From a virus, in the IMG/VR virus record IMGVR_UViG_3300045988_159113: a stretch of 64,000 nucleotides of DNA. One strand, written 5' to 3'. Position numbers and translations under genes: made by a program. The stretch's first letter is position 1. The number at the start of each line of letters is the position of its first letter. The notes below the pieces were generated by a model. That model did not search any database, was not told the origin of the DNA, and was given only the letters and a program-made list of their open reading frames with translations. Positions 4,727-47,121 of the stretch are shown piece by piece.

Positions 4727-4812
4727 CTATCTATGTAATGGTATAATAATCTTGAAAATCAAAAACAATAATAGTATTTATTTATTTGTTTTTGCGATAC
4801 ATTAGAGCTCTC

Positions 4813-7800
4813 TCAAGATAAAGCTGCGATCAATTTGTTATATTGCATCTTTTTATATGCACCTCTATAGCTCACACTATAGTTCAGACTATATCATCAC
4901 TTTCGTGTCGGGCACTCGTGTTTGGATTATTGCTCGCGTTGCTCACCAATTAGTCGTTAGCCTTTATCTGTACATTTAACGCTTCCAGATATTAGGACGG
5001 GATTTTCCACTTTCGGACCTTCCCCGTTTCCACCCGATTTTCTCATTATAAAAATGAGCCTCAAATTTTCTTGATTATATAACGTTTTTTATACATATAT
5101 CCATCTTGATAAGCTTTGCGCATTGAGTTTGCATTTATATTTAGGTTTGGATTTTGTTTTGCAAAATCATTTATAGGCATGATATATTTTTTATTTGTCT
5201 CTGTATCTATTATTAAGCGTGCTATTTTTCTTAAATTAGAAATTTTAGATCTTGTTGCATCGCTTACTATTTTATTTTTATGATACAAACCTATTTTGAT
5301 TTTTGTTTCCTCGCTTACATAATGCCCACGTAATTTTTGGCTCAGAATATTCTTCGTTTCTTCCGTGTGATGTTTTCCAAACATTCCGTTTTCAACTCCA
5401 AATCTTTTGCGTTTGGAAATCCATTCTTTATTTTGTTTGGTTCCAGAACAGTCTGGAGTATAACCAAAATATCTGTTTATACAAAAATCATCAAATTCGC
5501 AAATCTTCAAAAGATGAACTTCATAATCATTAGCATCTTTTCTAGTTCTAAATGTTTTAATTATGATCTTTTGTAATTTATATCTATTTGTTTCTATATA
5601 TGATTTTGTCCAAATAGAACTAGAGCCCATATATGAGTCATTGCAAATATCACATTTGCAACTACGTACCCCGATATAATATCTGTTAGTTTCGGTATTA
5701 TATATCATATATGTATAATGATTCATAAATTGCTATATATATATATTTAAGGATTAAACACAGCTACGCCAGAGTATCCCCATGCGATAAGCTTGCTAGC
5801 GGCTACGGGGCTGCTTACTGCGCCGCCCTGGAGACCAGTCTTGCCGCCTACGCCCAGGATTTCGTTCTGGATGTACAAAAATGTTAATCTTACTGTTATC
5901 AGTAAGTTCAGACTATATCTTTGATATTATTCAATATATTTAAACACAAAACCCTTTGCCATATCAACTTTTCCACTTAGGCATCTGCCAACATTTGTGA
6001 ATTCTTTTCGGCATGATTTTACACTTTCAAAAACTTTTACAAGTTCTCCTTCTTTCGTATATTGCCCAACTTTACGTTTTGCTCCTTTCCCAACTCTAGA
6101 TGTTATATCATGCATTTTTAGTGGGTTTTCAAAATTCCATTGAAAATTACGTATGCATAATCCAGAAGATGCAACTTTGTGTAATCTTAAAGGCGTTAAG
6201 GAAAATCTTTCACAAAAGTTTTCAATACAATCACTATCAATAAAATTGCCATTCAAATCATATCGAAACACAATTCGTTGTAAATCAACATGCAAGCTGA
6301 TGCGTTCGTTGTATGAATAGTAGAATTTGTTGATTGCCGTCTGTTTATAGATGGCGTTTTTGATTTGTTCAGAAGAAACGTCGGCATCTAGTGCTGCTTG
6401 ACTTAAACTACTAAATACATTAATCAAATTGCAATATCTATCAAATTTATAAACCGTTTTGCAAAATGTAGTTATTTTAAAGTCTGCCAAATTTATTTCC
6501 GGATCTGTTGACCATAAAAAATTCAAATAGCTTGTCTTTGTTTTATATGCACTTATTAATGCAGAACTAGTATTTGCACCTACAGATTCTGATGCAATTT
6601 TCACTGATTTGTATTTTGCAATAAATTCGCCATTTAAATCAAACTGGTATATTGGTATCTCAAATTTTAAACTATGGATTCCGCCAGTTGTTTGATTATA
6701 CGTGTCATTTCTATTGATAAACTTATTATCAACAAGGAGTTGCTCAACAAGCAATGCCTCTTCTTCTGTATCGTATATTCCAATAGTGTATCTTTTAAAT
6801 TTACCAAATCCGTACTTTTTTATTGCATTACCGAAATTTGTTTTTGGTTTTCTATAAGTTGATGGCATATTGCTATATATGCCATTACCATAATAATAAT
6901 CAAATATATTTGGATTTGTTTTGTGTACTCCAATATATATTTTGTTGTTTTGTGTGTTTACTGTTAAATAAACAATAAATTTTTTAATATCATTTTCCAT
7001 TTTGATTTTCTGATAAAAATCTATGCTTTTAAAAGCTAGTCGTTGAACGTTATTCATAGGCTTCATATCGCTTGCCTTTTTAGAATATTCGCTGCTGATT
7101 GTCTAAAATTGTATATTTTCAAGCATTCGCATTTATCATTTCTGATTATGCTGTAGCTATACAATTATAAAGAGTTCCCAGCAATTAAGAAAATTAGGAG
7201 ACTATCCGTCAATCTCCGCCCTTCAGTGTGAACATCGCAATAGGAGGCTGTGTGCTGCTCTTGTCTGCTGTCAAATCAAGACAGAGAGCATAGCCTTTCT
7301 CATCATTTGTGTTAGCTATATATCACTATATAGATCAGACTATATCTTGACCTTGTCAAAGGTCGTTCCCATTTCGATTTCTCTAAGTTTTTCACTAGTC
7401 GTTAGACATTACCGCATAATTACGCAGTAATAGCTCCAGATTGTCTTTTTAGACTTTCCTGGATTTAAGGAACAGATCAATGCAGCTCACGCTGCAAGGG
7501 GTCTAAGAATTAAACCATATTCACGGCTGAAGGTACGATCAACAGCAAATGTGATGCTGTTGCCACCAAACTCATACGTATCGAAAGTTGCTCCCACCTT
7601 CACGTAGTCATTGGCCTGCTTAGACCAAAGAAAAGTGTTATCAGCGTGGAAGTGAGCCAAGAAGTCAAACAACTCGGCCTGGACTGAATGCCAGAATCTT
7701 TCGTTACCAAATCAAAACTGATTCAGACTATATCATTGACTTATAAAAAGCCAGGCTCCGTTTCCATTTGTACCCTATATTAGGTAGTCGTTGAATATCA

Positions 7801-10800
7801 GCGCATATTTACGCGCTGTTTACTGCTGATTAGTCGAAACTTTCCAGCAATTAGAAGCCTTTAATCGAGGAGCTTTCACTCCAAGTATCCCTAACTTGAG
7901 ATAAATACGTATTTGTTACCTGTAGGTTTCTGCGCCTTCTCTCCCATCATAGACAGAACAGTACGGAATACCTCCATACTGAGCTTGTTGTATGCATACT
8001 TGGAAGCGAAGCGCTCAACCTGAGGAATAATCAAAAATATTATCACATGCCGTTTATGCATGCCTCTCACACTTCTTATTTGTGTAAGTTTAGACTATAT
8101 CTTCATCCTTCGCGGATGGGTGCTGTTCGTGGGTTTCCCTAGTCGTTACACTTATCGCTCGGTATTCTCATCTCAGAGTTCACCGATTTAAGCACCTTTT
8201 CATTAATTTATCACTAAATTACGGGGCATTACTCTACCCTCACCTATATAAATCAAACTGTTATCTCTACGTCTCCATAGAGTTCAGACTATACCTTTAA
8301 CTCATTTTCTTATACTTCAAAATATACGGATCATTTACCATTGGTTTTCTCAATATGCGTATCTGTTCCTCTGTTAATTCTTTCGTGGAACTATACAACT
8401 TGACGAGATTTCCTTTTAGGTCATACTGCTCAACTTTCCGAGCAACCGGCGCGTTTGTTGCGATCCATTTATCCATTTTATCATAAGACCATTTATAGCC
8501 TCTGCATGCGCGGTTCATCTTTATCGCGCGAATGATCTTTCCTGTGCTGATGTTTGGCGTTCCCTTAGCTGCTTCTTTAATAGAATCAAAAGCTGCATCA
8601 AACTCACCTTTCAATGTGTACCGGTAAACAGGCACTGTAGTTGTCAATTCTATCGCTGACTTTTTACCAAGCACCTTTCGTATATCCTCAGATACACGCA
8701 TGAATCGGTATCCGCTACATGTTGAACGCATTGATACAGCACGAGCTATAGCATCTTTTGGTATATCAAGCTGAGCAGCAGCAGATGGGATATCACGGTA
8801 TGTATTGATAAGTATGCCATCCCTGTTGTACTGTGCAATAGCACCACGTGGCATGTTGGAATAAAGATCAACATCTATAGACTCATCAAAAGAGAGATAG
8901 ACATCTTTACAGTTTGTGCGTGTATTGATGCATATGATCACGTGTTCTTTCGATACATGCAAATCATCAGCTGCTTCATCAACGCTATCCCACTTTCCGA
9001 CATGACCACCAGAGAACGTGAACGCGTTGACTCTTTGTCTACTGCAAATGCTGGGAGATGCAATCGAGTTGTAGTTGTCGGTTCTCTTTATAAAATCCTC
9101 GTTGACAATCAACATATAGAAATCAGTTGCATCATTGATATTGTTAAATTCTTTTAACGTTATCCTCTTGAAAGCATTGATTCCATGACGCTGCACCGCA
9201 CTCTGAAGTTGTGTCTTGCTCTTGTTGTATGATTCCGGTAGATGTATATCTACACCATCGCCAAGATAACCATCAAACACTTCTGGATCATTCACCTTGT
9301 GAATACCTACGTAAATCTTGCCATTATCAAGATTAATTGTTTCAAATACTATAAATTTCATGAGTTATTCCCCGTTTCCGCTTTCGCGTATTATAAAATT
9401 ATCAGTCGTTGAACTAATACAAATCTTTACTTGTATTTAGCTGCTGGTTGTCCGTTAGAGTTTCCAGCAATTAAAGGAATCTATTTTTACTAATCTCGCA
9501 ATTAGCCGACCCATTTATATATAGGTCTGTTTGTGTCGGGATCGAAAATGGTAGGCTTACCATTGGCCACAATAAAAGTAGACTATATCATTAGTTTTCA
9601 CTATTTCCCGTTTCCGTCAAACTTATCCTGTACTAGGTAGTCGTTGAACGAATCAAAAGAAAACTTTTGATTTCGCTGCTGATTAGCTTGCCGCTTTCCA
9701 GCAATTAGAGAAATTTTTCGTGGACGTCAATCCATCCACGTTGCACTTGTTAAAGAGAAGCAATAATTCAATATGTTGCCATATTGTTTAGACTATATTT
9801 TGAGATCTTGATATCTCTGCGCTCTTTCACTACTTACTCTAAAAATAGATAGTCGTTGAACGTATCGCGATATATTTCGCGATTTCGCTGCTGATTGTCC
9901 TTTTAGGATTTTCCAGCAATTAAGCGCATTTTATAATGGCATCTCCTTCTTTTTAAAAAAAACTTCACGTCGATTCCATTATTTCTGACATACATGAAAG
10001 ACTCCATAAGGGCCTTCTCCTTCTTGTCTAATCTGTAAATTGTTTCTGACAACTTTCCGTTATCCTTACCCTGTCCGATAGAAATGAAAGTATCCTCATG
10101 TGCAGCATAGAGGCTAGAGAACGAATCATCACAACGGTGTGTGGTGATGTAGTTCCGCATCTTGCTGATATTCAATGTGTTAGCTTATAGTTTCCTATAA
10201 GATCAGACTATATCATTAGGTCATGAACCTAGTTTCCGTTTCTAAAAATACGGCTATTGCCTAGTCGTTGAACCAAATTTCGCACTTGCTAAATTTTGGC
10301 TGCTGATTATCCTTTTGGATTTCCCAGCAATTAGAAAACTTTTTTCTTTAGAAATGTCTAAAGGAGCAATATCTCACTCTGATACTTTACATACAATTTT
10401 GTTAATCAATATGTTTCCATATTGTTCAGATTATATCTTGGTTTTTCAAACCTATTCCGTTTTAAAAATTACGTCATATTGACTAATCGTTGAACATTAC
10501 GCGATAATTATCGCGTATTTGCTGCTGATTACCATTTTAAGGCTTCCAGCAATTAGAAATATTTTAAGAGGGCATATGTTGCATTTTCCCTCTTCATGCA
10601 TTTCGGGCATTGCATTGCTCAAGAACCTGGTAGTCATACCAAGCTGGCAACCTGACTTGTCGAGAACCGAACTGTAGTCGTTATCGACCAAGCGAACGAT
10701 CACCTTCCAGTAGTTATCACTAACGCGAACAGGACGTGCTACAACGAAGCACTGCTGACCTGTAGCGTCAATCTGGAAGATATCATACTTTTCATAGTAG

Positions 10801-12437
10801 CGCTCTTTGAATGCCATGGTGATCTCGCTACCGTTTGCGCCATCCTCAACGGGAACATCAGCGAACTCAATGCGCTTGATGTCATTGGTGCTAACCTCCC
10901 ACTCAAACAATTATGTTATCTTTATGTTGCCATAAAGTTCAGACTATATCATTTGCTATATTTAAATATAAAGTCGCCATGTTCTTTAATGCCTTTTAAA
11001 ATTCTAGAAGCAGATGCAGAATTCAAATTATATTTTTCTTTCATTACTTTTACACTATCTAAGATTTCTATAAGATTGCCACACTTATCATACACTTCTA
11101 TTTTTCTCATATGTGAATGTTTGTTTGGCATTTCCGAAATCTTTTCTAGAGATAAATAATAATCTTTATACCATCCGCAGTTGTCATTTATTGCAGCATT
11201 AATTTTTTTAAATGAATGCAATTTTATAGCATTCATTATTTCCTTACCAACAAATTCTCCTATAAATCCTGATCCAAATTTATATAAAAATATATGTGCA
11301 TTTTTAATTTGTGCTCTATTTTTAGGTATAAATTCATCGTACAAAGAATCAGAAACAAACATGTTTTTAATTTTTGTTTGGTTTCTTATTGCATTACTAA
11401 TAGATTGAGAAGTACATTTCAAATAATTTGCACATTCTTTTCTGGAACAAAAATAAGAAACTAGTTTACCGCTTGAATTATATAAATATGTAATTTTATA
11501 TATTTTTTGTGTAAACTTTTTAATATCTATTGTTTCTTCTCTACTCCATAAAGAATTTAAAAATATGGTTTTGTCTGTTATTGCCCAATTAAATCTGGAA
11601 TATTCAAACCCATAAAAATCACATGCATCTAATGTACTATCCCATTTTTTTAACAATTCACCATTCAAATCAAACTGATATAAAATTTTTGAATGCACTT
11701 TTGGACTTATACATTCTAGAGATCCCCCAATTCCACCAATAGCAATGTTGTATGTATAATCTTGTTTAATAAAATTAAAATCAACTATTTTGCGCTCTTT
11801 ATCAAAAGCTTCATTTTTATTGTCGTATATATATAATACAGAACGAATAAAAGATTTAGTTCCATATTTTTTTACAGCATATTGAAATGGTGTTTTTGGA
11901 TACATATAACTTGATGGCTTGTTTACATAAACACCACAACCGATATATCCATCAAAGATTTCTGGGTTTTCTGTTTTGTGTACTCCAACATAAATTCTAT
12001 TTATACCATTAATTTTGGATTTTATGTTTGTTGTTAAGTAAACTATATATTTCATAGCAATTCAGTTTTTCGACTATTTTTTTTAGTCTACGGCTTTCGC
12101 CTAGTCGTTGAACACTCCAGCCATCGCTGGCATGCTGCTGATTGTCCTTTTAGGATTTTCCAGCAATTTAAAGAATTTATTCATGTCGTATCACTACGAC
12201 CGTGTACTTAATTATTAAATACATTGAGTTGATGCTCTGATACTTATTCCCAGACTTGTTATCCTAGTAGAAAATGTTTCTCAGAGACTCGGTGAGGTAG
12301 GCTGCGGTGCAGTCCTCATACATACGGCTCACTACGCCGAAGAGCTCCGGCTTTGTACCAAGAATCTTGCTAAAAGACTCATAGGTTCTTGTACTGCCCA
12401 TTTCAGGGTTCAGATTTTTAAAAGTTGCAACTTGCAT
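4813..12437 (-). CDS. Putative major capsid protein gene split into about 12 exons by 11 group I introns
   Basis: ATG at 12437 (MQVATFKNLNPEMG...), just downstream of an acidic scaffold-like gene. Exon pieces such as FEWEVSTNDIK, NISKMRNYITTH, IIPQVERFASKY, GNERFWHSVQAELFDFLAHF, NTNDEKGYALCLD and YIQNEILGVGGKTG are separated by blocks carrying group I P/Q/R/S elements. Summed exons give about 480 aa. The capsid identity is by position only. Confidence 0.6.
4831..5755 (-). mobile_element. Group I intron 11 with a GIY-YIG/NUMOD3 homing-endonuclease ORF (different intron subtype); 5' boundary approximate
   Basis: R is CTAACGACTAA and S is GATATAGTCTGA. P9 is CTATAG-tgtgag-CTATAG. The 3' end ..ACAAATTG|ATC GCA GCT TTA TCT TGA gives a 5-codon last exon. 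The ORF sits near the 5' side of the intron. Confidence 0.6.
5061..5726 (-). CDS. GIY-YIG homing endonuclease with NUMOD3-like repeats
   Basis: Intact 221-aa ORF with N-terminus YTYMIYNTETNRYYIGV. Repeated HTEETKxKIS / SEETKIKIG motifs. It ends in TGA and contains no TAG. Confidence 0.8.
   Translation of the reverse strand: MNHYTYMIYNTETNRYYIGVRSCKCDICNDSYMGSSSIWTKSYIETNRYKLQKIIIKTFRTRKDANDYEVHLLKICEFDDFCINRYFGYTPDCSGTKQNKEWISKRKRFGVENGMFGKHHTEETKNILSQKLRGHYVSEETKIKIGLYHKNKIVSDATRSKISNLRKIARLIIDTETNKKYIMPINDFAKQNPNLNINANSMRKAYQDGYMYKKRYIIKKI
5876..7211 (-). mobile_element. Group I intron 10 with a GIY-YIG homing-endonuclease ORF
   Basis: P1 GGAGAU.G/AGTCTCC places the 5' splice site after ..GGC GGA GAT. 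P, Q, R (inside the ORF start) and S are present. P9 is TTACTG-ATAA-CAGTAA. The 3' end reads ..ATTTTTG|TACATC. The junction is ..FTLKGGD|YIQNEIL.. Confidence 0.75.
5927..7066 (-). CDS. GIY-YIG homing endonuclease
   Basis: Intact 379-aa ORF containing KKFIVYLTVNTQNNKIYIGVHKT. It has repeated YQFDLNGEF / VFRYDLNGNF modules, ends in TAA and contains no TAG. Confidence 0.8.
   Translation of the reverse strand: MKPMNNVQRLAFKSIDFYQKIKMENDIKKFIVYLTVNTQNNKIYIGVHKTNPNIFDYYYGNGIYSNMPSTYRKPKTNFGNAIKKYGFGKFKRYTIGIYDTEEEALLVEQLLVDNKFINRNDTYNQTTGGIHSLKFEIPIYQFDLNGEFIAKYKSVKIASESVGANTSSALISAYKTKTSYLNFLWSTDPEINLADFKITTFCKTVYKFDRYCNLINVFSSLSQAALDADVSSEQIKNAIYKQTAINKFYYSYNERISLHVDLQRIVFRYDLNGNFIDSDCIENFCERFSLTPLRLHKVASSGLCIRNFQWNFENPLKMHDITSRVGKGAKRKVGQYTKEGELVKVFESVKSCRKEFTNVGRCLSGKVDMAKGFVFKYIE
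7316..7512 (-). mobile_element. Group I intron 9 (no ORF, covarying P/Q)
   Basis: P1 is GGTU.G TAA-ttc-TTAGACC. P2 is GCAGC-GTGA-GCTGC. P AAATCCAGGAAAG covaries with Q AATCTGGAGC. The junction ..TAT GGT T|CT AAC ACA is in frame. Confidence 0.7.
7713..7900 (-). mobile_element. Group I intron 8 (no ORF)
   Basis: P1 TCTCAAG/CTTGGAG has a U.G pair. P2 is GGAGT-GAAA-GCTCC. P/Q/R/S are present. The junction ..GTA TTT AT|A TTT GGT restores the frame of ORF 7487-7672. Confidence 0.7.
8032..8235 (-). mobile_element. Group I intron 7 (no ORF, variant P/Q)
   Basis: A P1 U.G pair follows ..GAG GGT. P2 is ATTTA-GTGA-TAAAT. P AAATCGGTGAAC covaries with Q ATACCGAGC. R is GTAACGACTAG and S is GATATAGTCTAA. 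The 3' end reads ..ATTTTTG|ATTATT. Confidence 0.65.
8254..9522 (-). mobile_element. Group I intron 6 with a GIY-YIG homing-endonuclease ORF
   Basis: P1 GACC-U.G...GGGTC places the 5' splice site after ..AGA CCT. Elements seen: P TTTAATTGCTGGAAA, Q CAACCAGCAGC, R GTTCAACGACTGA, S GGTATAGTCTGA. The 3' end reads ..CAGTTTG|ATTTAT. Confidence 0.7.
8297..9361 (-). CDS. GIY-YIG homing endonuclease
   Basis: Intact 354-aa ORF with N-terminus KFIVFETINLDNGKIYVGIHKV. It has repeated DNA-binding modules, ends in TAA and contains no TAG. Confidence 0.8.
   Translation of the reverse strand: MKFIVFETINLDNGKIYVGIHKVNDPEVFDGYLGDGVDIHLPESYNKSKTQLQSAVQRHGINAFKRITLKEFNNINDATDFYMLIVNEDFIKRTDNYNSIASPSICSRQRVNAFTFSGGHVGKWDSVDEAADDLHVSKEHVIICINTRTNCKDVYLSFDESIDVDLYSNMPRGAIAQYNRDGILINTYRDIPSAAAQLDIPKDAIARAVSMRSTCSGYRFMRVSEDIRKVLGKKSAIELTTTVPVYRYTLKGEFDAAFDSIKEAAKGTPNISTGKIIRAIKMNRACRGYKWSYDKMDKWIATNAPVARKVEQYDLKGNLVKLYSSTKELTEEQIRILRKPMVNDPYILKYKKMS
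9568..9729 (-). mobile_element. Group I intron 5 (no ORF, about 162 nt); boundaries tentative
   Basis: P/Q/R/S elements are present and P6 is GAAATCAAAAG-tttt-CTTTTGATTC. The P1 candidate CGTGGA..TCCACG has two possible registers. The phase-0 junction gives ..SATWMD|ANGKPTIF.. Confidence 0.55.
9769..9965 (-). mobile_element. Group I intron 4 (no ORF); 5' boundary approximate
   Basis: P/Q/R/S elements are present. P9 AATATG-GCAA-CATATT is followed by G|AATTATTGC. Confidence 0.65.
10173..10376 (-). mobile_element. Group I intron 3 (no ORF); 5' boundary approximate
   Basis: P/Q/R/S elements are present (TCTAATTGCTGGGA, AATCAGCAGC, GTTCAACGACTA, GATATAGTCTGA). P9 is TTATAG-GAAA-CTATAA. The 3' end reads ..CACATTG|AATATC. 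Confidence 0.65.
10407..10595 (-). mobile_element. Group I intron 2 (no ORF); 5' boundary approximate
   Basis: Elements seen: P TCTAATTGCTGGAAG, Q AATCAGCAGC, R GTTCAACGATTA, S GATATAATCTGA. P9 AATATG-GAAA-CATATT is followed by G|ATTAAC. Confidence 0.65.
10908..12218 (-). mobile_element. Group I intron 1 with a GIY-YIG homing-endonuclease ORF
   Basis: P1 hairpin TGTAT|TTAAT-aat-ATTAAGTACA has a U.G pair at the splice site. Elements seen: P TAAATTGCTGGAAA, Q AATCAGCAGC, R GTTCAACGACTA, S GATATAGTCTGA, and P9 TTTATG-GCAA-CATAAA. Omega-G precedes TTTGAG. Both junctions are in phase 0 (..SINSMY|FEWEV..). Confidence 0.8.
10949..12055 (-). CDS. GIY-YIG homing endonuclease with repeated NUMOD/IENR-like DNA-binding modules
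   Basis: Intact 368-aa ORF. N-terminus KYIVYLTTN...RIYVGVHKT. Repeated YxFDLNGELxxxW/F modules. It lies between intron elements R and S, ends in TGA and contains no TAG. Confidence 0.8.
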   Translation of the reverse strand: MKYIVYLTTNIKSKINGINRIYVGVHKTENPEIFDGYIGCGVYVNKPSSYMYPKTPFQYAVKKYGTKSFIRSVLYIYDNKNEAFDKERKIVDFNFIKQDYTYNIAIGGIGGSLECISPKVHSKILYQFDLNGELLKKWDSTLDACDFYGFEYSRFNWAITDKTIFLNSLWSREETIDIKKFTQKIYKITYLYNSSGKLVSYFCSRKECANYLKCTSQSISNAIRNQTKIKNMFVSDSLYDEFIPKNRAQIKNAHIFLYKFGSGFIGEFVGKEIMNAIKLHSFKKINAAINDNCGWYKDYYLSLEKISEMPNKHSHMRKIEVYDKCGNLIEILDSVKVMKEKYNLNSASASRILKGIKEHGDFIFKYSK

Positions 12438-13582: not shown

Positions 13583-13612
13583 GGCCCCTCGGAATAGAAT
13601 CCGAAAGGCCCC
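13583..13612. terminator. Bidirectional-looking intrinsic terminator
   Basis: GGCCCCTCGGA-atagaa-TCCGAAAGGCCCC is flanked by an A-run and a T-run. Confidence 0.55.
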
Positions 13613-13785
13613 AAAAAATATATATAAAATGAAAACAAGAATCCTGTCTCACCCGTTCTTTATAATACATTAATCTATTATACCCGCTACGTCGCCGACG
13701 GTACACCTACCTTCTACATTCGAACGAGTTTTACATATTGCCTTTTCATTATTCTGTCGCAATTATACTATTTTTTTTATTTGTT

Positions 13786-14193
13786 TTACATCATCTCCTC
13801 CCAATCAATAGGAACGCCCTTTTTCACGGTGTCTATATAGAATCTGCTGAATGGCATCCCGTCATATGCATCCTCATCATCTATATAGTCCTTGATATAC
13901 CTAGCAAGCTATATGTCATTTTGTATTGATGACCCATAAAAATCTGAATAGGCCATGTTGGCGACGTAGACATAATCATATAACTTGTTGTGTTCAAGGG
14001 TTATATTCGCATTTTGGAGGTAGTTGTCGACGCTTGACTTATCCAGCGGGTTGATGGTAGAGCCTCCCTTCTACATCATCTATACGGCAAACTCGCACAT
14101 CTTGCGCGTGAAATGCCAACCATAGTATGAAAGGTACCTCTTCATTCCCGCCGGACGGTCATCATATTGGTCAAGAGTCATATCTTGAATCAT
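13786..14193 (-). CDS. Hypothetical late protein (about 135 aa)
   Basis: Read by eye: MIQDMTLDQYDDRPAGMKRY...VPIDWEEMM, ending in TAA, with 3 in-frame TAGs. The frame stays open upstream of the ATG and overlaps the preceding ORF. Confidence 0.5.
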
Positions 14194-14335
14194 AACGGGA
14201 GCGTCTTCTTGTTGGCTGATATTCCTCTCTCTCATCTTCGAGCATCTCTTTCACAGCCTTTGCCTTCTTCTCTATGCACGATACGAACTCCATGAGTCTC
14301 TCGTAGTTGTCGCTTGTGTACTCCATGATTATCAT
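14171..14335 (-). CDS. Small hypothetical protein (54 aa)
   Basis: MIIMEYTSDNYERLMEFVSCIEKKAKAVKEMLEDEREEYQ..., ending in TGA. It may be the N-terminal part of 13786-14193 if a frameshift or an assembly indel is present. Confidence 0.35.
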   Translation of the reverse strand: MIIMEYTSDNYERLMEFVSCIEKKAKAVKEMLEDEREEYQPTRRRSRYDSRYDS

Positions 14336-14812
14336 TTTATTTTGTAGTTATCAAAGTCAGTATTTTATCAATCTTTCCAGCTACACCATCGAACCGTTCT
14401 TCGAGACTCGTGAGCCTTTCATCTCTCTCTTTATCTCTCGCGAACTATGGGTTCAGAGTTTTCAGTATCTCCTCACACTATCCGATGTTGTTTTTATATC
14501 TATCAATATTTTCCAATGCTTGTTTTGAGTTATGAAGTATAGCTTCCACGTCTTGCTACAGTCCCTGCTTTGTTTCGCTTATGACAATATTGCCGTTGCC
14601 ATATGAGACAATAGTATTTGAGAACGGGATGCTATTGTAGTCGATAGTGTTTCCGTCTACATTAACCCTAAGATCCAAGCATTGCTAATTTGGCATACCT
14701 CCTATCATGGGCTTTGGCGCGCTTGTATAGATTACCTCTCCTGTTTTCAGGCGTACGCCGTCGGTCTTGTCTAATATATACACAACCCCGCCCTGTCTTA
14801 AAGATCCAAACA
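14336..14812 (-). CDS. Hypothetical late protein (about 158 aa)
   Basis: Its ATG overlaps the upstream TAA (TAATG). The sequence runs MFGSLRQGGVVYILDKTDG...KIDKILTLITTK with 4 in-frame TAGs. Coordinates are accurate to +/-1 nt. Confidence 0.55.
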
Positions 14813-15130
14813 TTACACAAACAAGATTATCCGGTTCGTTGTTTTATTAAAAGACAACAGATGAGTACCAGCTGCAAGAGTGGTAAGTGCTGCGTCTGCA
14901 TTATTAGTAAGATGCAGGGTTTGGTTGTTAACCTATAACTCAACACCTGTAACAGTTGTTGCTGAAGATGTCGGGATATTCACAACTATAAGCCCAGCCT
15001 AGCCAAGGAATCTGAACACATGATTTGGCAATGTGTAGATAGCATTGGTGCTAACCGATCCTGCATCCGATAGGGTCGCTGCAACATAAGGAATCCCTCC
15101 CCTGTTACCAATATATCCAGTTACTGCCAT
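14812..15130 (-). CDS. Hypothetical late protein (about 105 aa)
   Basis: The ATG lies 2 nt after the upstream TGA. The sequence starts MAVTGYIGNRGGIPYVAATLSD... and extends track ORF 14999-15244 through 2 TAGs to a TAA. Confidence 0.5.
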
Positions 15131-15131
15131 A

Positions 15132-16055
15132 TCAAGTCCAGAATGTAGTGGTTCCGTTGTTGTAATACTGAGAAGCTGGAACAGCCACCAGATTTGGATA
15201 TTGCACAGTAGTTGTGCTTGGCTGGTTCTGCTTGATTTCTGCAAGTTCTTTCTACAACGGTGCTATCATAGCTGCCATTGCCTGGTTCTGCTGCTCTTGG
15301 CTTATCTAGCTCTGGAGCCGTGTCTTTGTCTCCTGTAACTCATTGATGCGATCCTGTAAAGCTGAGTTCTGCATCTGGTCAAGCTTTGCAAGAATAGCGT
15401 TTGTGTTTACAGTTGCTGTATCTTTGATACTCTGAACAGAACTTGAGATATTGTTGTTTATTGCGCAAGTCTGAGCTTGTGTCTCGTAAGCATTAGCGCT
15501 GAATCCCTGATCCATTCCTGTCCTTAATGTTCCAATCTGGTTGCTGAGAGCATTGACAGAGTTAATGGTTGCTATCTGATTCTGATAGTTGCCGTTTGTG
15601 ATAGCCTCGCGTACATTGCAGCAGCATTGGCTCATCTGCTAAGCGATAGACATATTGCCCTACTGTACACTGTTGATAACTTGCTGACCAGTCATTCCAA
15701 CCTGGCTACCTACCTGTGTTATAGCATTCTATACCTGGTTAACTGCTGTCTGGATACTGTTGACGTCACAGTTCAGAGTAGTTGCCAGCTAACCTATGGA
15801 GTTTGCGTTTCCGTGAATGGCGCTCATCAAGAGATCACGCTCTGCTGTGCTTGCTATTGTCTCGGTTATATTGCCACGATTGTTTCCAAACCATCCATTC
15901 CCACCTATACCATAAAGGAAGAAAAGGAAGATAACCCAAATCCAATTTCCGCCACCGAAACCATTTCCGTTGCCCATCATCGACAATAAGAGATTGGGAT
16001 CTACCTGGCTGCCACTCCCGGCATCAGGTAACATATAAACTTTGCTGTCTGACAT
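15132..16055 (-). CDS. Gly-rich transmembrane plus Gln-rich coiled-coil protein (307 aa)
   Basis: ORFs 15789-16055 and 15306-15635 are in frame and joined by TAGs (6 in total) sitting in Q-rich context. The sequence contains GNGNGFGGGNWIWVIFLFFLYGIGGNGWFGNN and ends in TGA at 15132. Confidence 0.7.
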
Positions 16056-18102: not shown

Positions 18103-19590
18103 TTATAAAATATGCGCACCAGCCATGATGTCATATTTATCAAGTATGCCTTGGATACGTTTAATCTTCTTGTTCATATCACAAGATAGCTGTTTACCTC
18201 CGACATATATATCGTGTTTTTCAACATTGATAAATAAAACGTTTGCATAGTGCTTGTTAAAAATTAATTTAAGATACAAATCATCGTCAAGTGCGAAATC
18301 TTTAATCATATCGTAGTCGATAGCGTCCTCTAGAATATACGGAGGGATAAATGTCCCACCGCATCCAGTAGGAAGTAAAGAGCGAGTAGCTACACCTTGC
18401 GCACCACGAAATACTGGCCACTCTCCGTATGGCTTGATACTTCCGTCAATATCCATAGAAATCAAACGGCAACGGCCAGAGATAACACATCCCGGATTTC
18501 TTTGCCACCAGGTAAACATTCGCTGTATCATCGTGTTTTCGTATTCAACATCATCGTCTACTAACAAGATACAGCGATCGTAGTATTCAGTGGCTGCATA
18601 GATCCATTTGTTATGTGGTCCCATATCATCAATAACTGGGTGGACTTCTATATCTCCAGCTTTAACAAGATCAAGCAACTCCTGAGACATGTTTTTTACA
18701 TCATCAACTGGAATATTCAGAATGAATTTTTCCGGTCTCATCGTCTGCCTTAGAATGCTTAAAATCGCCGTCATGGAGTTATTCATCCTTTCGCCATATG
18801 TTGCCATAGATACAACAACACCCGGCAGTCTCTCCTGCAGCTTCTCCTTATATTGTGGAAAATGTGCAGCGAGTATGTTATGAATCTCTGTGTATTTCTC
18901 CTTGTTGACATCTGCCAGGCAATCCTCTTGGTTTGTCTGTATGTCATACCTACATATACCGTTTTCATAAAGTGATCGGTAACGTCTACCAGATAACACA
19001 CAAAACAAAAACTGCCACGTCTCATCCGATGTAGGAGAAAGTGCCATGAATTTTTCCCTATCAAAGAATAAAGGAGAGGTGAAAGTGTGAGCTGGGTATA
19101 AAGTGCCAGCTGCACCATTTGCCGGTTTCTGGTTTATTGTTGGAACGCCTCTGAGGTATATATTGTCAAAATTTCTGATTTCTCGCAGGCTTCCGTCGCG
19201 TTCGGTTATTACTACACTCGAAGTTTGCCCGTAAATAATATCCTCTGGGTACTTCTTATGCATCTCTATAAATTCATGTAGCCATCCTGGCCTCATTGTC
19301 ATATCATCATCAACTACAAGTATGGCGTTATCTGGGTATCGTTCGAGAGTTGGGATGAGTTTCTTATGGCTTCTTATATTGCCTTTGTCCCATATTATCT
19401 CAACGCCGAAATCCTCGCGCAAATCCTTTGGCAAATCAAGTTCCAGATTCGGGAACTCATCCTCGGACAATACGAGGACGAAATGCACATCGTCTTCTTT
19501 CTGTCCGAGGATTATATTGTAAATGTCCCGAGTAGTACCTATTCGCTTTGGGTATGATGTCATACTTACGATTAGTGTATCATTATTCAT
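18103..19590 (-). CDS. Tandem-duplicated GT-A-type glycosyltransferase (495 aa)
   Basis: Intact ORF with two internal repeats. Each starts VSMTSYPKR / VSMATYGER and carries VVDDDM / LVDDDV (DXD). No TAG. Confidence 0.65.
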   Translation of the reverse strand: MNNDTLIVSMTSYPKRIGTTRDIYNIILGQKEDDVHFVLVLSEDEFPNLELDLPKDLREDFGVEIIWDKGNIRSHKKLIPTLERYPDNAILVVDDDMTMRPGWLHEFIEMHKKYPEDIIYGQTSSVVITERDGSLREIRNFDNIYLRGVPTINQKPANGAAGTLYPAHTFTSPLFFDREKFMALSPTSDETWQFLFCVLSGRRYRSLYENGICRYDIQTNQEDCLADVNKEKYTEIHNILAAHFPQYKEKLQERLPGVVVSMATYGERMNNSMTAILSILRQTMRPEKFILNIPVDDVKNMSQELLDLVKAGDIEVHPVIDDMGPHNKWIYAATEYYDRCILLVDDDVEYENTMIQRMFTWWQRNPGCVISGRCRLISMDIDGSIKPYGEWPVFRGAQGVATRSLLPTGCGGTFIPPYILEDAIDYDMIKDFALDDDLYLKLIFNKHYANVLFINVEKHDIYVGGKQLSCDMNKKIKRIQGILDKYDIMAGAHIL

Positions 19591-22253
19591 TCTTCTAAAA
19601 CAAAATAGAAAACACCAGCTCTTGGTGTCGTTGAATTAAATTGTGATTCTGTAACTGCTTTAAGCTTATCGCCCCAAGGTATGTCAGAAGTGGTAAGCTT
19701 TCTAAATGTTGCCGTTCCGGTTCCTGTCGTAGGTGCTGCAAGAACTGTATTTTGTGCTCTGTTGATATTCTTTTCATAAGCTGGAACGTTTACGAAAAGA
19801 CAACCTGATCCATCACTCTCTACACCTCTGTAATCGGAAGCTCCGCTAGTTATAGGCTAAAGAGTAGGAGGTGTTGTTCCGTGCCCATACCCAGAGATTT
19901 TTGTTGGATCTATAGATCCTGTGTAATCTTTACAAGTTCGAACCATACCAGACGTTCCACCTCCTGCAGTTGGGAGGGCACGCCACTCACCTGTACCGTT
20001 ATTTCCACCATTAAGCCATCGAGATGCGCTAAGACTATCATTTATTGTTCCTGGAACAATACCAGCAACACCTTTAGCCAATTTAGGAATATCAGCAGCA
20101 TCTCCCTTTGCGCCCTTTATATTGCAAACAAGTACCCAGTTAAAAGATGACTGCTCTGCATTTGCAGCTTTAAATACATCACATGTATGAGTGTTGAGAT
20201 ACATGTCGCCAACCTTTGCATTTGTAACTGCATGCACTCCAGCATTTGGAACAGCAGTCCCAGAGTGCCATGTGATAGTTGCTCCAGTGTCTCCCTTCTG
20301 ACCTTTCAGATTATTGAACGTAAAGGTTGTAGTTGCGTCACTTGTTGTTGCCGAAACTGTAGGAGTCCCGACGCTATTAATATTACCGCCTGCAGCTGCT
20401 TTAATAGTTGGAGTTGTTCCATTCGCTCCCTTGATATTACAAACACCGGCCCACTTATTGGTTCCTGTTGATTTATACACGTTGTAGGTTTTCGTGTTCA
20501 GGTACATATCACCTGTTTTTGCACCAGAAACAGTTGCTGCCGTACCAGTCACGGCTGTGCCGGTATGCCATGTTACAGTAGCGCCAGTGTCTCCTTTCTA
20601 TCCCTTTAAATTATTAAACGTGAAAGTTGTGGTCGTCCCGCTTGTGTTTGCTGTAACACTTGGAGTTCCGACAGCTCCGATATTACCACCAGCTGCTGCC
20701 TTTATGGTCGGGGTTGTTCCATTGTTTCCTGGCGTTCCTTGTGGCCCCTTGATATTGCAAAGATAAACCCACTAGTTAGGAGCGGTTGCCTTATATACAT
20801 TACTTGTTCCAGTGTTGAGGTACATATCCCCAGCCTTAGAACCAGAAACGGTAAATGTTTTAGCAGTGGTAGAGGTGCCGGTAACAGCACCGCCAGAGAA
20901 CCATGTAGCAGCAGCTCCAGTTGAACCTTTCGATCCATTCTTTACTGTTATCGTTGAGCCGTCTGTGAAAGTGTAGACATTACTACCGCCATCTGCTGTT
21001 GAAGTTGTGGTTTGCTTTCCGCCTTTTTGAAGATAGTTTGAAAGGTCAACGGTTCCGCTGAGATTGTCCCATTTACTACCATCCCACACAACGTTGTCGC
21101 CAGCTTTGATATTATTAGTTTTGTCTGCCTTTGTTATGTTCCAGACATCACCAATATTATTCCCTGAAGTTGGAAGTTCGGAATAATTGGTTTTTGTGCC
21201 TTTGTATTTATAAATTGTGGAGATGTCGGACTTCTTGGCGTAGTTTTTGAGGTAATCAAGTACTGCGTTTGTTGTTGGTATGCCATAAAAGTTATCAGTA
21301 TCGTACCCTCCTATTCTATCAACGTGCCCGAATTCCAAATATCTATTATTTTGTACATCATACTAACCTCCCATCATTAACGACGTATTTGTTCCGTCAT
21401 CAAAAATACAATTTGATATTTCAATAATCGAATTTGGGTCTAATTGATAAAATCCAAGCTCAGGTACATTGCCAACCATATTTATATTTGAGCATGAATC
21501 AATATGAGTACAAATTACACCAGATAGAAATATAGTATTTGAAGTTTTAATATTAATTGCTATATTCTAAATAATAATATACGCACTATTTACAATAGAT
21601 GACACACCAAAATCGTTAACGCTTGTTAACTATCCTTTTATACGTATACAAGAAGAATTGGAAATCCATGCAACCGTTCCATTATTAAGAGAAAGCGTTG
21701 GCATAGTAATGAAAATACTTTCATCTAATGCATGGCTATAATATAAGTTATCTGCCACAAACATTATACACGAAATACTTATTTTTGCAGAATCAGATAA
21801 CTAACAATCGTATATATATAAAACAGCATCTTCACTGCTAATTATTCCTTCTCCTCCAATCGTTCCATTCTTAATCGTCAATGTACCTGTCAACTATGTC
21901 GTCCCGCTCAACGTCAGCGTGTACCCATTCAAATCCAAAACACCTGTAGTAATAGGCAAAGCTGTCAAATCGCTTGATGCTATAAAGTCAGCCTTTGCTT
22001 TTGGATTCTTTCCTTTAAGCGCAGCATTGATTACTTTATTCTATACAGCATTTACTGATGTGTCATTAAGCACAGAGTCAATAGTCATGCCTGTCGGTAT
22101 CTCTCTGGAACAAGCCTTGACCTATCCGCTACTATCTACATATACAGGTTTCGTAGGCGAACCGATCTGAGCACTTACCGCCAACTTATCCGACACCCTA
22201 GCATGTAATGTATACTGGTTATTTCCAGTTTGTATTTTTCTAATATCAGACAT
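19587..22253 (-). CDS. Large tail fibre / receptor-binding protein with three ~100-aa tandem repeats (888 aa)
   Basis: ATG at 22253. ORFs 20772-21338 and 19857-20552 are in frame, with 10 TAGs. The repeat unit is TW(H/F)xGxAV...GDMYLNT...VCNIKG...TIKAAAGGNI...TFTFNNLKG-Q-KGDTGA. The TGA overlaps the next ATG (ATGA). Confidence 0.8.
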
Positions 22254-22317
22254 ATTTTTTATTTAAAATAAAAAGAGGAGGTATTACGCCGCCTCTCGTA
22301 TGTTAATCTAATGTGAA

Positions 22318-31181: not shown

Positions 31182-31866
31182 ATTTGCTGTTGTCTTTACA
31201 GAATCCAGTGCAACCGACCAACTCACGCATGATGTTCAACGCTTCAAAGTACCGATCCTCATCAAGTAAGTAATCGATGACATTGATTGCCATCCACAAG
31301 AGGTCGCGTTTGTACACTAGATCTTTATGTTTCTATGTGTTACACTTGTCAGCTCCGCAGAACTTGCCAAGTATCTCACGGTTGATATTAAAGAAGCACT
31401 CTTTGAGCCCGCACATGCTGAACATATAATCTTGAGAGAGTGCAACCGTGAAGTTATTGTTTATATTCAGAGAAATGAAATCATTAATCTGTACGATATC
31501 CCACTATCCGTTCCAGTACTTGACAATATGCTCGCCATCATAAGCAAAAACGAATTTCTTTTTTGCTAACTCATCGATATATTCCAGACTGTCCTTTTTA
31601 GGCAGGATGTAATGCGACACCATGTAAAGGCCATCTTCTTCGATATGAAAATCGCTCACGTCATCCGAACTGTGGTCATTGATATCGTACGTGTACAGGT
31701 CGTATTTTTCCTCTTTCTCTTCTGTTATGTCAACGCTATGGATAACGTTGACGGAAACCGTCCCGTCATATGTAAAGATCCCATCGTAAGTATTACAGGG
31801 ACGTTCCATTCCGGCTATCGTAATATGACAGCCAGATGTATGCTGTAATTGAAATATTGCCTACAT
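31150..31866 (-). CDS. Acidic protein with a Cys-rich C-terminus (238 aa)
   Basis: The ATG overlaps the portal TAA (TAATG) and is followed directly by TAG as codon 2. It is in frame with ORF 31504-31809. 3 TAGs, TGA at 31150. Confidence 0.6.
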
Positions 31867-34058: not shown

Positions 34059-34060
34059 TA

Positions 34061-34831
34061 TTATAAACTTTTAATATTTATGTCCTACTCTCCAACCATC
34101 CGTATTTTAGAATGGTAAGCATTAGGAAATTTCTTTCGTCTCACAAGATCCCACAAGTATTCACTGATAAAACCTTCCAGACGACGCTGCCATTTGATGT
34201 TTCCCTTGAACCAGTTGCCTTTTTTGAATTGTTCATTCATGAAATCCTCAACCTGTTTGTTTCCATCTATTCCAAAATAAGAATCAAACCGTTTGAGAAC
34301 ATCAAAAACAAAATGTGCACCTTCCATGAAATCATCGTGTTTCATAATGAACATGTTGCAATATGAGCATTGCGCATCTTCCAGAAAATCATCATAAACC
34401 GGCAAGTATGACCTGTCCGCTTCTCTTATTGCCAACCTTAAAGGATTAATGAAAATCGAGCTATGATAAACAGATATATTGACCTTGTTCATAAGCCCGG
34501 AGGACCAGGTTTTCGTATACACTGCGCCGTGCTTGTCAACTATATCACGCGCTTTTCCTAGATCTTCCATAAAGTCATCAAAAAACCTTCTGTAATGGCA
34601 GAAGCCGATATATTCAGGTATTAACTCCTCGTGCTCCATGACGTGTTTGATCTGGCAAGCTTCACCATAGCATATATTGTGCTTTTCCGTGAACTCATCA
34701 TTCATATATATAACAGGAGACAAATCATCAAAAACATTCTCATTTTGCGCAGCGATAAAATAGCCATCACTGTGTGGGTGATCTCCTGTTATTGTATTAT
34801 GCGCGCATATGTACATCCTCAAATCATCCAT
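34061..34831 (-). CDS. DUF4422-like putative glycosyltransferase
   Basis: Track ORF 34085-34831 (ICAHN...YGEACQIKHV...IGFCHYRRFF). It ends in TAG, and a TAA follows 7 codons later, just before the portal ATG. Confidence 0.55.
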
Positions 34832-40435: not shown

Positions 40436-40436
40436 A

Positions 40437-47027: not shown

Positions 47028-47045
47028 TCATTCGCTCATTACTAG

Positions 47046-47121
47046 TAGGGACGCCAGGATTCGAACCCGGTCCAAGAGGGTTAGAGCCTCCTGTGCAATG
47101 AACCACATACACCACATCCCT
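47046..47121 (-). tRNA. Amber-suppressor tRNA, anticodon CUA (reads UAG)
   Basis: Minus-strand sequence AGGGATG TG GTGT-atgtggttcatt-GCAC A GGAGG-CTCTAAC-CCTCT TGGA CCGGG-TTCGAAT-CCTGG CGTCCCT A. The fold has a 7-bp acceptor stem, a 4-bp D stem with GG in the loop, and a 5-bp anticodon stem. The anticodon loop has U33-CUA-A37, and the T-loop is canonical. CCA is not encoded. Confidence 0.85.

Follow-up and report, generated by a model that had tools for sequence, protein, structure and literature searches.

A TAG-recoding crAss-like phage, probably from the Zeta group, with eleven group I introns in its major capsid gene

Intron-bearing genes in phages and organelles

The phage T4 genes td, nrdB and nrdD each carry one intron, and the endonucleases of this system are GIY-YIG enzymes of the I-TevI type. 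In crAss-like phages of the Zeta group, an example major capsid protein (MCP) gene is split into five fragments and has three insertions of intron type (Yutin et al. 2021, PMC7886860; review PMC10136315), and the study of this group, which located introns via protein domains, reported up to 14 introns per genome (PMC7886860). The gene orf142 of Staphylococcus phage Twort, as relayed in a later account, contains three introns, has an exon of 23 nt and is documented to undergo exon skipping (Landthaler and Shub 1999, via PMC10136302). Jumbo gut (Jug) phages carry about 18.5 introns over a 360-400 kb genome and have terL in 2-3 fragments; their genetic code is the standard one, their endonucleases are mostly of HNH type, and metatranscriptome reads support their splicing (PMC12880540). 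Outside phages, the mitochondrial cox1 gene of Agaricus bisporus spans 29.9 kb and holds 18 group I introns, most of which are large and contain LAGLIDADG-type ORFs (PMC2987802).

Here, we analysed a stretch of 64,000 nucleotides of viral DNA (the window), which is part of a roughly 195-kb genome. With a probability that we put at about 0.88, its minus strand from 12437 to 4802 is one MCP gene, with 11 group I introns to be removed and 12 exons to be spliced, in a large crAss-like phage that recodes TAG and probably belongs to the Zeta group. The locus resembles the Zeta-group MCP genes in its gene family, phage assemblage and presence in human gut assemblies, as well as in combining stop-codon recoding with group I introns that bear endonuclease ORFs, but differs from the published example in having 11 introns in one gene (at least 12 in a relative), seven of them without an ORF and thus invisible to the domain method. 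Contigs of this lineage are absent from the tables of Yutin et al. (PMC7886860). An intron load of this kind is known for crAss-like phages, and its size here is far above any published case in the literature searched, this single gene nearly equalling the published per-genome maximum of 14. The original prediction had called the load extreme, which holds against that literature but not against the phage's own relatives.

On the account relayed for Twort orf142, that gene and the present one are alike in having a number of small group I introns of phage type that resemble one another, two of them separated by a very short exon, whereas the present gene has eleven introns, predicted to be spliced, and its microexons measure 18, 27, 45 and 18 nt (PMC10136302). 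With Jug phages the locus shares Bacteroidales gut phages as its setting, many small group I introns (~206 nt) and their presence in essential genes (PMC12880540). Like cox1 of A. bisporus, it is one gene serving as a reservoir of mobile group I introns that are gained and lost between strains, although here the gene is viral and 7.6 kb long, and its introns are mostly ORF-less and about 200 nt in length (PMC2987802). As in T4, hairpins follow P7 and endonuclease ORFs are looped out of peripheral helices (reviews PMC2988022, PMC3984707), and the endonucleases are modular proteins that combine a catalytic domain at the N-terminus with NUMOD DNA-binding modules; unlike those of T4, their catalytic domains fall under the Pfam GIY-YIG threshold.

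Exons, junctions and the spliced capsid protein

Together the 12 exons measure 1422 nt and specify 473 aa, while the 11 introns sum to 6214 nt, or 81% of the MCP locus, in good agreement with the original estimates of about 80% and 480 aa. The exons have a GC content of 0.46, compared with 0.27-0.40 for the introns. All features of the gene lie on the minus strand. Exon 1 (12219..12437; 219 nt, residues 1-73) begins with an ATG at 12437 and is colinear with homologues. It is followed by exon 2 (10587..10907; 321 nt, residues 74-180) and by the 18-nt microexon 3 (10376..10393), whose product YVKYQS agrees with HEEG-YVKYQS-N in every homologue. Exon 4 (9975..10172; 198 nt, residues 187-252) precedes the 27-nt microexon 5 (9734..9760; LLFNKCNVD), exon 6 (9523..9567; 45 nt, ANGKPTIFDPDTNRP) and the 18-nt microexon 7 (8236..8253; IYIGEG), so that four exons measure 18-45 nt. 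Exons 8 (7899..8031; 133 nt), 9 (7513..7707; 195 nt), 10 (7212..7303; 92 nt) and 11 (5749..5875; 127 nt) lead to exon 12 (4802..4830; 29 nt), which encodes (Y)RSFILREL and fits the C-terminus PYRSFILRE[IL] of the homologues, directly before their stop. This last exon had originally been read in the wrong frame, as IAALS and a stop, with the gene ending at 4813; in the correct frame the stop codon TAA is placed at 4802-4804, and the gene ends at 4802.

Exon 1 holds an in-frame TAG (12264..12266, minus strand), overlooked in the original prediction, which aligns with the Q of NIFYQD in most homologues and is read as Gln. Translation of the gene thus needs a UAG suppressor tRNA, and a tRNA with anticodon CTA was identified at 47045..47121 on the minus strand (ARAGORN; Rfam tRNA 47 bits). 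In addition, ORF coverage of the window doubles when TAG is counted as sense. Genomes of 193-197 kb, reassignment of TAG to Gln and a CTA suppressor tRNA are consistent with the zeta_4 subgroup of Yutin et al. (PMC7886860), and from this zeta_4-like size, genetic code and tRNA we conclude that the phage probably belongs to the Zeta group.

Several lines of evidence identify the spliced product as the capsid protein of a crAss-like phage. It matches Pfam Crass_capsid (PF23898) at 61.3 bits (cut-off 27; E 7.6e-17), and uninterrupted 473-aa proteins, one of them annotated as a major capsid protein, align to it with 100% coverage and about 74% identity. This alignment to crAss-like capsids, proposed as a check in the original prediction, is colinear over the full length. 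A Foldseek search with an AF2 model of the homologue P0001 (75% identical; pLDDT 59, low) returned the phicrAss001 capsid first (7QOI, 7QOH and 7QOF; E 2e-14 to 1e-12, with TM-scores of only about 0.3), followed by other HK97-fold phage capsids. The MCP neighbourhood of the relatives is likewise crAss-like, with CrAss_Ring_1 and crAss_MUZ. Pfam, the homologue alignment and Foldseek therefore agree with the original assignment of a single structural gene to the MCP, and the Crass_capsid match and this neighbourhood bear out its guess of a crAss-like phage. The spliced protein had no match in PHROGs, sequence and profile searches of the PDB with it did not recover the crAss001 capsid, the protein database holds no entry at least 90% identical to it, and no GenBank phage matched the MCP locus by megablast. 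There is no second capsid copy in the 64-kb window, although an intact one could lie in the rest of the genome.

The junctions are exact. At 473 aa the spliced product equals its closest uninterrupted homologues in length, with no indels at junctions, it retains every column invariant in alignment A3, and the exons contain no frameshift and no stop apart from the recoded TAG. A terminal G is present in 11 of 11 introns and every junction is frame-exact, in line with the original proposal of 3' sites after a G and restored frames; of the phases 0, 1 and 2 claimed there, phase 0 occurs in eight introns and phase 1 in three, and phase 2 in none of the 11. Furthermore, a search with 24-nt probes, allowing up to 2 mismatches, revealed natural intron-less alleles in 96-99% identical contigs for six of the 11 junctions, all equal to those deduced here: intron 1 (I1; exon 1 to exon 2) in L066, L089 and L090, I5 in L066 and L091, I8 in L087 and L088, I9 in L087, I10 in L066 and L089, and I11 in L089.

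Homologue alignment and these alleles also showed that two of the four example junctions given originally, those of I8 and I9, had been misplaced. The I8 junction, written YVF-I-FGNERFW, is correctly YVFI-C-NERFW, so that exon 8 now reads YVFICNERFW as in the homologues; that of I9, written REYG-S-NTNDEK, is correctly REYG-Y-EKGY, the true 3' splice site being 12 nt beyond the one proposed, after ..CTAACACAAATG, as confirmed by the intron-less allele of L087. The two superseded junctions would give a protein of 478 aa, with insertions of 1 aa and 4 aa precisely at these points relative to the homologues.

At the 5' splice sites, a U.G pair with a guide sequence fitting the intron's own exon is found, in part by eye, in nine introns, rather than the seven originally placed, but in I2 and I4 an A takes the place of the near-universal U. 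We looked for a register shift that would place a U before these two sites, and none preserves both the terminal G and the protein. In relatives, introns at the I2 site are preceded by GGT, and in L082 a diverged intron at the I4 site likewise follows GGA. The 33-nt junction expected from splicing of exons 2, 3 and 4, as an assembled transcript or a doubly intron-less allele, was absent from the metagenome and viral collections. Finally, the intron sites are not significantly concentrated where the protein is best conserved: 1715 of 10000 sets of randomly placed sites performed equally well.

Ribozyme cores and intron endonuclease ORFs

The repeated group I core described originally on the minus strand is real and far beyond chance, as seen in RF00028 scores, the order of the R and S elements and helix covariation. 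Every one of the 11 insertions contains exactly one R (AACGAYTR) followed by one S (..TATAGTC.). In nine introns, 93% of cells in P3, P4 and P6 are paired, against 68% in shuffles; 18 of the 23 pairs show compensatory changes, and sliding the register by 1-3 columns drops pairing to 33-48%. The P/Q covariation examples from I9 and I7 given originally are correct. Extra hairpins after the R element, between P7 and P3', were seen by eye, and the Rfam alignment has an insertion there. The introns are putatively of the small phage type (subgroup IA, for which P7.1/P7.2 hairpins are expected), ten having a core in common and the eleventh diverging from it. Pairwise identities between introns (58-77%) are uninformative on recent duplication.

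The Rfam scan with RF00028 suggested in the original prediction recognised ten of the 11 introns, six above the gathering score (54-88.7 bits) and two more with E values of about 1e-7, with partial matches for the three ORF-split introns of canonical core. P1 pairings are given below as exon/guide, the splice site falling at the end of the first element. The best score was that of intron 3 (10173..10375; 203 nt; 88.7 bits, E 2.5e-21; P1 GAGU/GCUC), followed by intron 9 (7304..7512; 209 nt; variant P4 UCCAG/CUGGA; 72.4 bits), the two introns with A before the 5' site, intron 4 (9761..9974; 214 nt; 68.5 bits) and intron 2 (10394..10586; 193 nt; 64.1 bits), intron 5 (9568..9733; 166 nt; 59.9 bits; P1 CGUGGAU/GUCCACG) and intron 8 (7708..7898; 191 nt; 54 bits, the 3' end of the match lying at 7708; P1 UAUCU/GGAUA). 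Intron 7 (8032..8235; 204 nt), with the variant P4 UCGGU/ACCGA, scored 41.3 bits (E 5.7e-8), and 89 bits with R1, an in-house model that we built from introns of the window with I10 and I11 outside the training set.

The remaining introns carry ORFs. Intron 1 (10908..12218; 1311 nt; P1 GUAU/GUAC with U.G) gave a partial RF00028 match and R1 matches to both halves; intron 6 (8254..9522; 1269 nt; P1 GACCU/GGGUC) gave 40.3 bits for its 5' half and 19.8 bits for its 3' half with RF00028, and 110 and 51 bits with R1. Intron 10 (5876..7211; 1336 nt; P1 GGAGAU/GUCUCC), which has an extended P5, matched RF00028 partially (28.4 bits) and the untrained R1 in both halves. Intron 11 (4831..5748; 918 nt) is of a divergent group I type, and neither it nor its ORF-less copy in L066 is matched by RF00028, but R1 recovered it at 56.5 bits (E 3e-10). 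Its fold has the group I helix order, with a consensus holding 20 compensated pairs among 3 sequences, and its guide suits its own exon both here (CCUU/GAGG) and in L066 (CACU/GGUG). Across the 64 kb, R1 matches are confined to the MCP gene, and both untrained introns were recovered. Separately, the R and S motifs each have one additional chance match elsewhere in the MCP gene, and a T-box match at 4995-5138 (E 0.08) falls inside I11 and was discarded as chance.

The four ORFs, all on the minus strand, are intron endonucleases, probably of GIY-YIG type. Three lie in P8 loops: those of intron 1 (10949..12055; 368 aa; phrog_314, NUMOD1 and TIGR01453 at E 3e-8), intron 6 (8297..9361; 354 aa; phrog_314, NUMOD1, I-HmuI_NUMOD-like and TIGR01453 at E 2e-6) and intron 10 (5927..7000; 357 aa; phrog_314 at E 5e-22, NUMOD1 at E 6e-11 and Pfam GIY-YIG at E 0.021). 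The start of the last, the ATG at 7000, was deduced from alignment A1, the open frame reaching an ATG at 7066 across the R element. The fourth lies in the P1 loop of intron 11 (5061..5726; 221 aa; phrog_314 at E 6.5e-21, NUMOD3 and TIGR01453 at E 0.007). Of the original claim of four GIY-YIG homing endonucleases, the four intron endonuclease ORFs stand, while the GIY-YIG assignment is likely but lies below curated thresholds. The motifs IVY..x9-13..YIG/YVG are present; PF01541 (E 0.021 and 2.5) and SegE_GIY-YIG (0.06-0.23) are all below cut-off, and TIGR01453 (E 3e-8 to 7e-3) remains under its 56-bit cut-off. Precomputed Pfam domains of the homologues include NUMOD only, and a PDB profile search with the endonucleases found nothing, I-TevI included. 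For the model of the intron 1 protein (AF2 pLDDT 86.5), Foldseek gave only a weak UvrC match in the PDB; in BFVD it matched intron-associated endonucleases and GIY-YIG-annotated and Seg-type proteins, among them SegD (117 columns, rmsd 2.8, 38% identity). These proteins are predicted to be active in cleavage.

Intron turnover, alternative readings and implications

Among relatives, at least 15 insertion sites vary, and one relative has at least 12 introns. Within the lineage, I1 occurs in each of the three homing-cycle states, with the endonuclease gene, without it (a 218-nt ORF-less form) and as an empty site, and L066 has an endonuclease ORF inside I9. Near-identical genomes differing at so many sites constitute a natural experiment in intron turnover.

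In the mechanism that we propose, a pre-mRNA of about 7.6 kb would be transcribed from the MCP gene, the guide sequence of each intron would form P1 with the final 4-7 nucleotides of the exon before it, free guanosine would cut after that exon and the intron would be released after its terminal G. Joining of the 12 exons would yield a 1422-nt ORF and a 473-aa capsid protein, the single UAG being read as Gln by the phage's suppressor tRNA. The endonucleases would most likely cut intron-less capsid alleles in co-infection, with the introns being copied in. Seven of the 11 introns are ORF-less and lie at most a few hundred exon bases from an ORF-bearing one, so that co-conversion can carry them along.

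We infer that all 11 introns are spliced in vivo without helper proteins. It is unlikely, though credible, that these group I-derived insertions are not self-sufficient and are excised only with the aid of proteins from phage or host (RNA chaperones or maturase-like endonucleases, for example) or only in vivo. The ORF-less introns measure just 166-214 nt and are rich in A and T, non-canonical pairs occur at the splice sites of two of them, and in Bastillevirinae phages, as outlined in PMC11878797, four of eight spliced genes were spliced solely in infected cells. However, the cores are complete and covary as in active ribozymes, the locus has no maturase-type (LAGLIDADG) ORF, and such dependence would alter mechanistic detail while leaving the annotation unchanged.

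A decaying capsid gene in a defective or dead-end genome, in which at least one intron no longer splices, I2 and I4 being the likeliest, appears to us very improbable. Such decay could account for the missing U.G pairs of I2 and I4 and for the absence of the spliced junction of exons 2, 3 and 4 from the collections, but five or more further assemblies from the lineage (L066, L087-L090) carry I2 with an identical exon-intron border, the L082 intron at the I4 site also follows GGA, and the exons are intact except for the recoded TAG, with all family-invariant residues kept. That a metagenomic chimera inserted repeated intron-like sequence into a capsid gene is hardly conceivable: conserved core blocks common to the introns might mislead an assembler, but independent assemblies from other samples share introns, positions and flanks, the frame is restored exactly at every junction, and intron pairs are at most about 77% alike by the alignment measure used.

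Beyond this, we tentatively raise the possibility, itself rather doubtful, that the capsid gene of this Zeta-like lineage is the most intron-dense protein-coding gene known outside organelles, with at least 15 sites per 1.4 kb gained and lost among 96-99% identical genomes, and that the array is kept because it is beneficial as well as selfish; I2 and I4 would then be natural examples of group I splicing after an A. If so, the endonuclease-loaded capsid gene would act against co-infecting relatives, whose capsid genes it would cut and convert; interference competition of this kind has been shown for PhiPA3 gp210 (PMC11620839). The gene also offers a test bed for coordinated splicing, in which eleven similar ribozymes would have to act in order around 18-nt exons without skipping. 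Standard gene callers will continue to miss such capsid genes. Published intron counts for crAss-like phages rest on endonuclease-domain searches, which miss ORF-less introns, and since seven of the eleven introns here have no ORF, the intron loads of these abundant gut phages are probably much underestimated.

The capsid gene and its exon-intron map

The major capsid protein (MCP) gene of this crAss-like phage runs from 12437 to 4802 on the minus strand and comprises twelve exons (E1-E12) separated by eleven introns (I1-I11, 5' to 3'). Uninterrupted homologues are encoded by the GenBank gut phages MT835470 and MT835492 and by hundreds of entries in a large protein collection; the best are 473 aa long and cover 100% of the query at about 74% identity, and one of them carries the annotation major capsid protein. 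The I8 and I9 junctions of the original prediction gave a map of 478 aa, with insertions of one and four residues exactly on those two junctions, and were displaced. As revised, I8 starts after ..TTTATCT and ends in ..GATTTG, while the 3' site of I9 moves by 12 nt to the end of ..CTAACACAAATG. These junctions yield YVFICNERFW and REYGYEKGY, the same as in the homologues, and a coding sequence of 1422 nt whose 473-aa product has the homologue length. The last exon encodes (Y)RSFILREL and a stop, in agreement with PYRSFILRE[IL], with which the family proteins end; the stop therefore lies at 4802-4804 and not, as first placed, at 4813.

The exons measure 219, 321, 18, 198, 27, 45, 18, 133, 195, 92, 127 and 29 nt, and introns make up 6214 of the 7636 nt of the locus (81%), close to the predicted share of about 80% and product of about 480 aa. 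GC content is 0.46 in exons and 0.27-0.40 in introns. All four minus-strand microexons, at 10376-10393 (18 nt), 9734-9760 (27 nt), 9523-9567 (45 nt) and 8236-8253 (18 nt), are multiples of 3 nt with phase-0 introns on both sides, so that skipping them would keep the frame. Exon skipping is documented for phage Twort; here, it would mean in-frame deletions rather than frameshifts.

The spliced protein scores 61 bits against Pfam Crass_capsid (PF23898; cut-off 27), which, together with the colinear homologues, bears out the earlier putative assignment. A homologue with 75% identity was modelled with AF2 (pLDDT 59, low confidence), and the model retrieves phicrAss001 capsid chains on top (E 2e-14 to 1e-12), followed by other HK97-type capsids. 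In relatives, neighbours of the gene carry CrAss_Ring_1 and crAss_MUZ domains; the window encodes a portal (31866-34070), and no second capsid copy was found within its 64 kb. The single in-frame TAG of the gene (12264-12266) aligns to the Q of a conserved NIFYQD, and a tRNA with anticodon CTA (a UAG suppressor) lies at 47045-47121 on the minus strand. The window is badly fragmented in standard-code ORF lists, and its ORF coverage doubles once TAG is counted as sense, with 14 in-frame TAGs in ORF 2-2689 and 16 in 39119-40441. The phage is consistent with the zeta_4 subgroup described by Yutin et al. (PMC7886860) in genome size, TAG-to-Q code and suppressor tRNA; contigs of the window's lineage are absent from the tables of that study. 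Elsewhere in the window, two large, TAG-rich minus-strand ORFs (19587-22262 and 2-2689) contain a module, ..TTPTIKAAAGGNI..TFTFNNLKGQKGDTGAT.., repeated several times, along with collagen-like G-x-x runs (GQKGDKGDDGKPGKDGNNGSPGLPG), and probably encode tail fibre or appendage proteins. The minus-strand ORF 18103-19635, within the phage structural region, matches glycosyltransferase family 2 (E 7e-9).

Ribozyme cores and endonuclease ORFs

Matches to the Rfam group I model (RF00028) fall on the minus strand of the window, from 7.3 to 10.7 kb, and six are above the gathering score (10184-10385 at 88.7 bits, 7316-7522, 9769-9968, 10407-10633, 9559-9743 and 7708-7913). Relaxed filters added 8073-8245 and 9359-9532 (both E ~1e-7), as well as fragments at 7024-7190, 10920-11019 and 8265-8409 that belong to introns interrupted by long ORFs. 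Ten introns were thus matched and I11 went unscored; across the whole 64 kb there was no further match outside the MCP gene. Each of the eleven insertions has exactly one R and one S core element, in order, as predicted for an elevenfold repeated core, and either motif has one additional chance match elsewhere in the gene. In an alignment of nine introns, helices P3, P4 and P6 are 93% paired versus 68% in shuffles, pairing falls to 33-48% when the register is slid by 1-3 columns, and 18 of 23 pairs show compensatory changes. The P/Q covariation described from the raw sequence is thus real.

I11 (4831-5748) was examined with an in-house covariance model trained on the nine other window introns, leaving out I10 and I11. 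This model matches I11 at 56.5 bits (E 3e-10), likewise matches I10, and has no match in the 64 kb apart from the window's introns. Three diverged I11-type copies fold with the helices in group I order, P3, P4-P5, P6, P7, hairpin, P3', P8, P7', P9, with 20 compensated pairs. The I11 guide sequence suits its own exon (CCUU/GAGG), the same ribozyme type at a different site in L066, a homologous locus of the lineage, pairs as CACU/GGUG, and the I11 junction is confirmed by an intron-less allele. Comparative sequence evidence thus supports I11 as a group I intron of divergent type, with its endonuclease ORF within the P1 loop. Two L066 introns (14908-15161 and 15261-15500), one an ORF-less I11-type ribozyme and the other with canonical P/Q/R/S blocks, were also missed by RF00028, even at E<=1, and are matched by the in-house model at 43 and 91 bits.

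The four intron ORFs (5061-5726, 5927-7000, 8297-9361 and 10949-12055, minus strand) all belong by match to the homing endonucleases of PHROG 314, with E values between 4e-15 and 5e-22, and contain NUMOD DNA-binding modules; GIY..YIG motifs are seen. Their predicted GIY-YIG identity is likely, although the family profiles stay below curated cut-offs: TIGR01453 (group I intron endonuclease) matches each of the ORFs, with E values from 3e-8 to 7e-3, and Pfam GIY-YIG reaches E 0.021 at best. When the I1 ORF product is modelled confidently with AF2 (pLDDT 86.5) and the model is compared with the PDB, only the DNA-binding module of I-HmuI and a weak match to UvrC emerge, while BFVD returns crAss-like 'intron associated endonucleases', GIY-YIG-annotated proteins and Seg-type endonucleases. 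The family is frequent on contigs of 160-190 kb. None of the 1304 codons of the four ORFs is TAG, compared with 0.5-3.6% in phage ORFs; the endonuclease ORF inside I9 of L066 (about 13600-14350) has in-frame TAGs, one opposite a conserved Q.

Intron polymorphism among near-identical genomes

A search for exact copies of a 27-mer in exon 2 gave ten stretches of this lineage. They stem from eight or nine contigs, the numbers differing because a 197,477-bp contig occurs once in each collection and L066 is counted among the ten. These contigs include ORRO01000007 (197 kb), OLXI01000008 (193 kb), OLWK01000011 (194 kb), OLOM01000131 and five IMG/VR contigs, L066 among them, and share 96-99% identity with the window over the parts that align. 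Using 24-base probes, we identified intron-less alleles with the exact predicted exon-exon junction for six introns: I1 (L066, L089, L090), I5 (L066, L091), I8 (L087, L088), I9 (L087), I10 (L066, L089) and I11 (L089). Furthermore, I1 exists in three states, as 1311 nt with an ORF, as a 218-nt form whose P8 is a plain hairpin, or absent. An intron array created by faulty assembly would be hard to square with either observation; we therefore regard this origin as ruled out for practical purposes. The anatomy of the locus and its population polymorphism are seen directly in the DNA, and comparison of these sequences shows ongoing gain and loss of introns.

Intron load was gauged from S-motif counts per capsid-gene span in the first 85 related loci: 56 had none, 12 had one, 11 had two, two had three, and single loci had four, six (on a truncated contig), eight and twelve (L066). 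The window's gene also counts twelve for its eleven introns, because one match is due to chance. On inspection, L066 has eleven introns too, in a different set that lacks I1, I5 and I10, includes three others and has an ORF within I9. L088 (OLOM01000131, 6795-12489) carries twelve model-supported introns, one of them after AAGCCT (aa about 317) and not in the window, in a gene that continues past the end of the stored locus. A further site lies within exon 2, near window position 10719 (aa about 135); its intron is ~1280 nt long and ORF-bearing in one contig (L087 4571-5853), and ~200 nt long in another (L091 4454-4657). The lineage has at least 15 insertion sites, and the window is thus a typical member of an extreme lineage rather than a lone outlier; in more distant relatives, additional sites occur near aa 15, 79, 177, 376 and 435. 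In a further homologous locus (L072 2840-3940), the capsid ORF reaches its own stop and is followed by an I11-type endonuclease ORF, a ribozyme and a repeat of the sequence that codes for the C-terminus, (Y)KSYVLREI and a stop. Full-length protein is predicted from spliced and unspliced mRNA alike, and the arrangement resembles an intermediate of intron invasion in which the 3' exon is duplicated.

Proposed spread and known cases

The introns would be removed by group I splicing, presumably independently of helper proteins, and would spread by homing driven by the putatively active endonucleases. Every ORF-less intron lies at most a few hundred exon bases from an ORF-bearing one, making co-conversion a plausible route for their spread. 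Before I2 (10587/10586) and I4 (9975/9974), on the minus strand, the last exon base is A, not U, and stands opposite the guide-sequence G that normally makes the wobble pair; no register shift at either site preserved the protein and the terminal G together. This A is common to all lineage contigs examined. Where relatives carry an intron at the I2 site, it follows GGT, and in L082, a homologous locus with a diverged intron at the I4 site, GGA precedes and the A is paired with U.

Comparable arrangements include a Zeta-group MCP in five fragments with three intron-type insertions, in a group with up to 14 introns per genome as detected via protein domains (PMC7886860), and a 2023 review called three introns in one MCP a 'stark example' (PMC10136315). 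Three introns and a 23-nt exon are reported in phage Twort orf142 (PMC10136302) and 45 introns in 37 genes of Bastillevirinae phages (PMC11878797); Jug phages average ~18.5 introns per genome of 360-400 kb (PMC12880540). Among the cases compared, only Agaricus bisporus mitochondrial cox1, with 18 group I introns (PMC2987802), and similar organellar genes exceed the MCP gene. The load, originally called extreme, is unmatched by any phage or bacterial gene in the searched literature, an incomplete sample that proves no record, and is shared by relatives carrying from 11 to at least 12 introns. The kind of arrangement is thus already known; what is new is its degree, exons as short as 18 nt and the turnover between genomes that are nearly identical.
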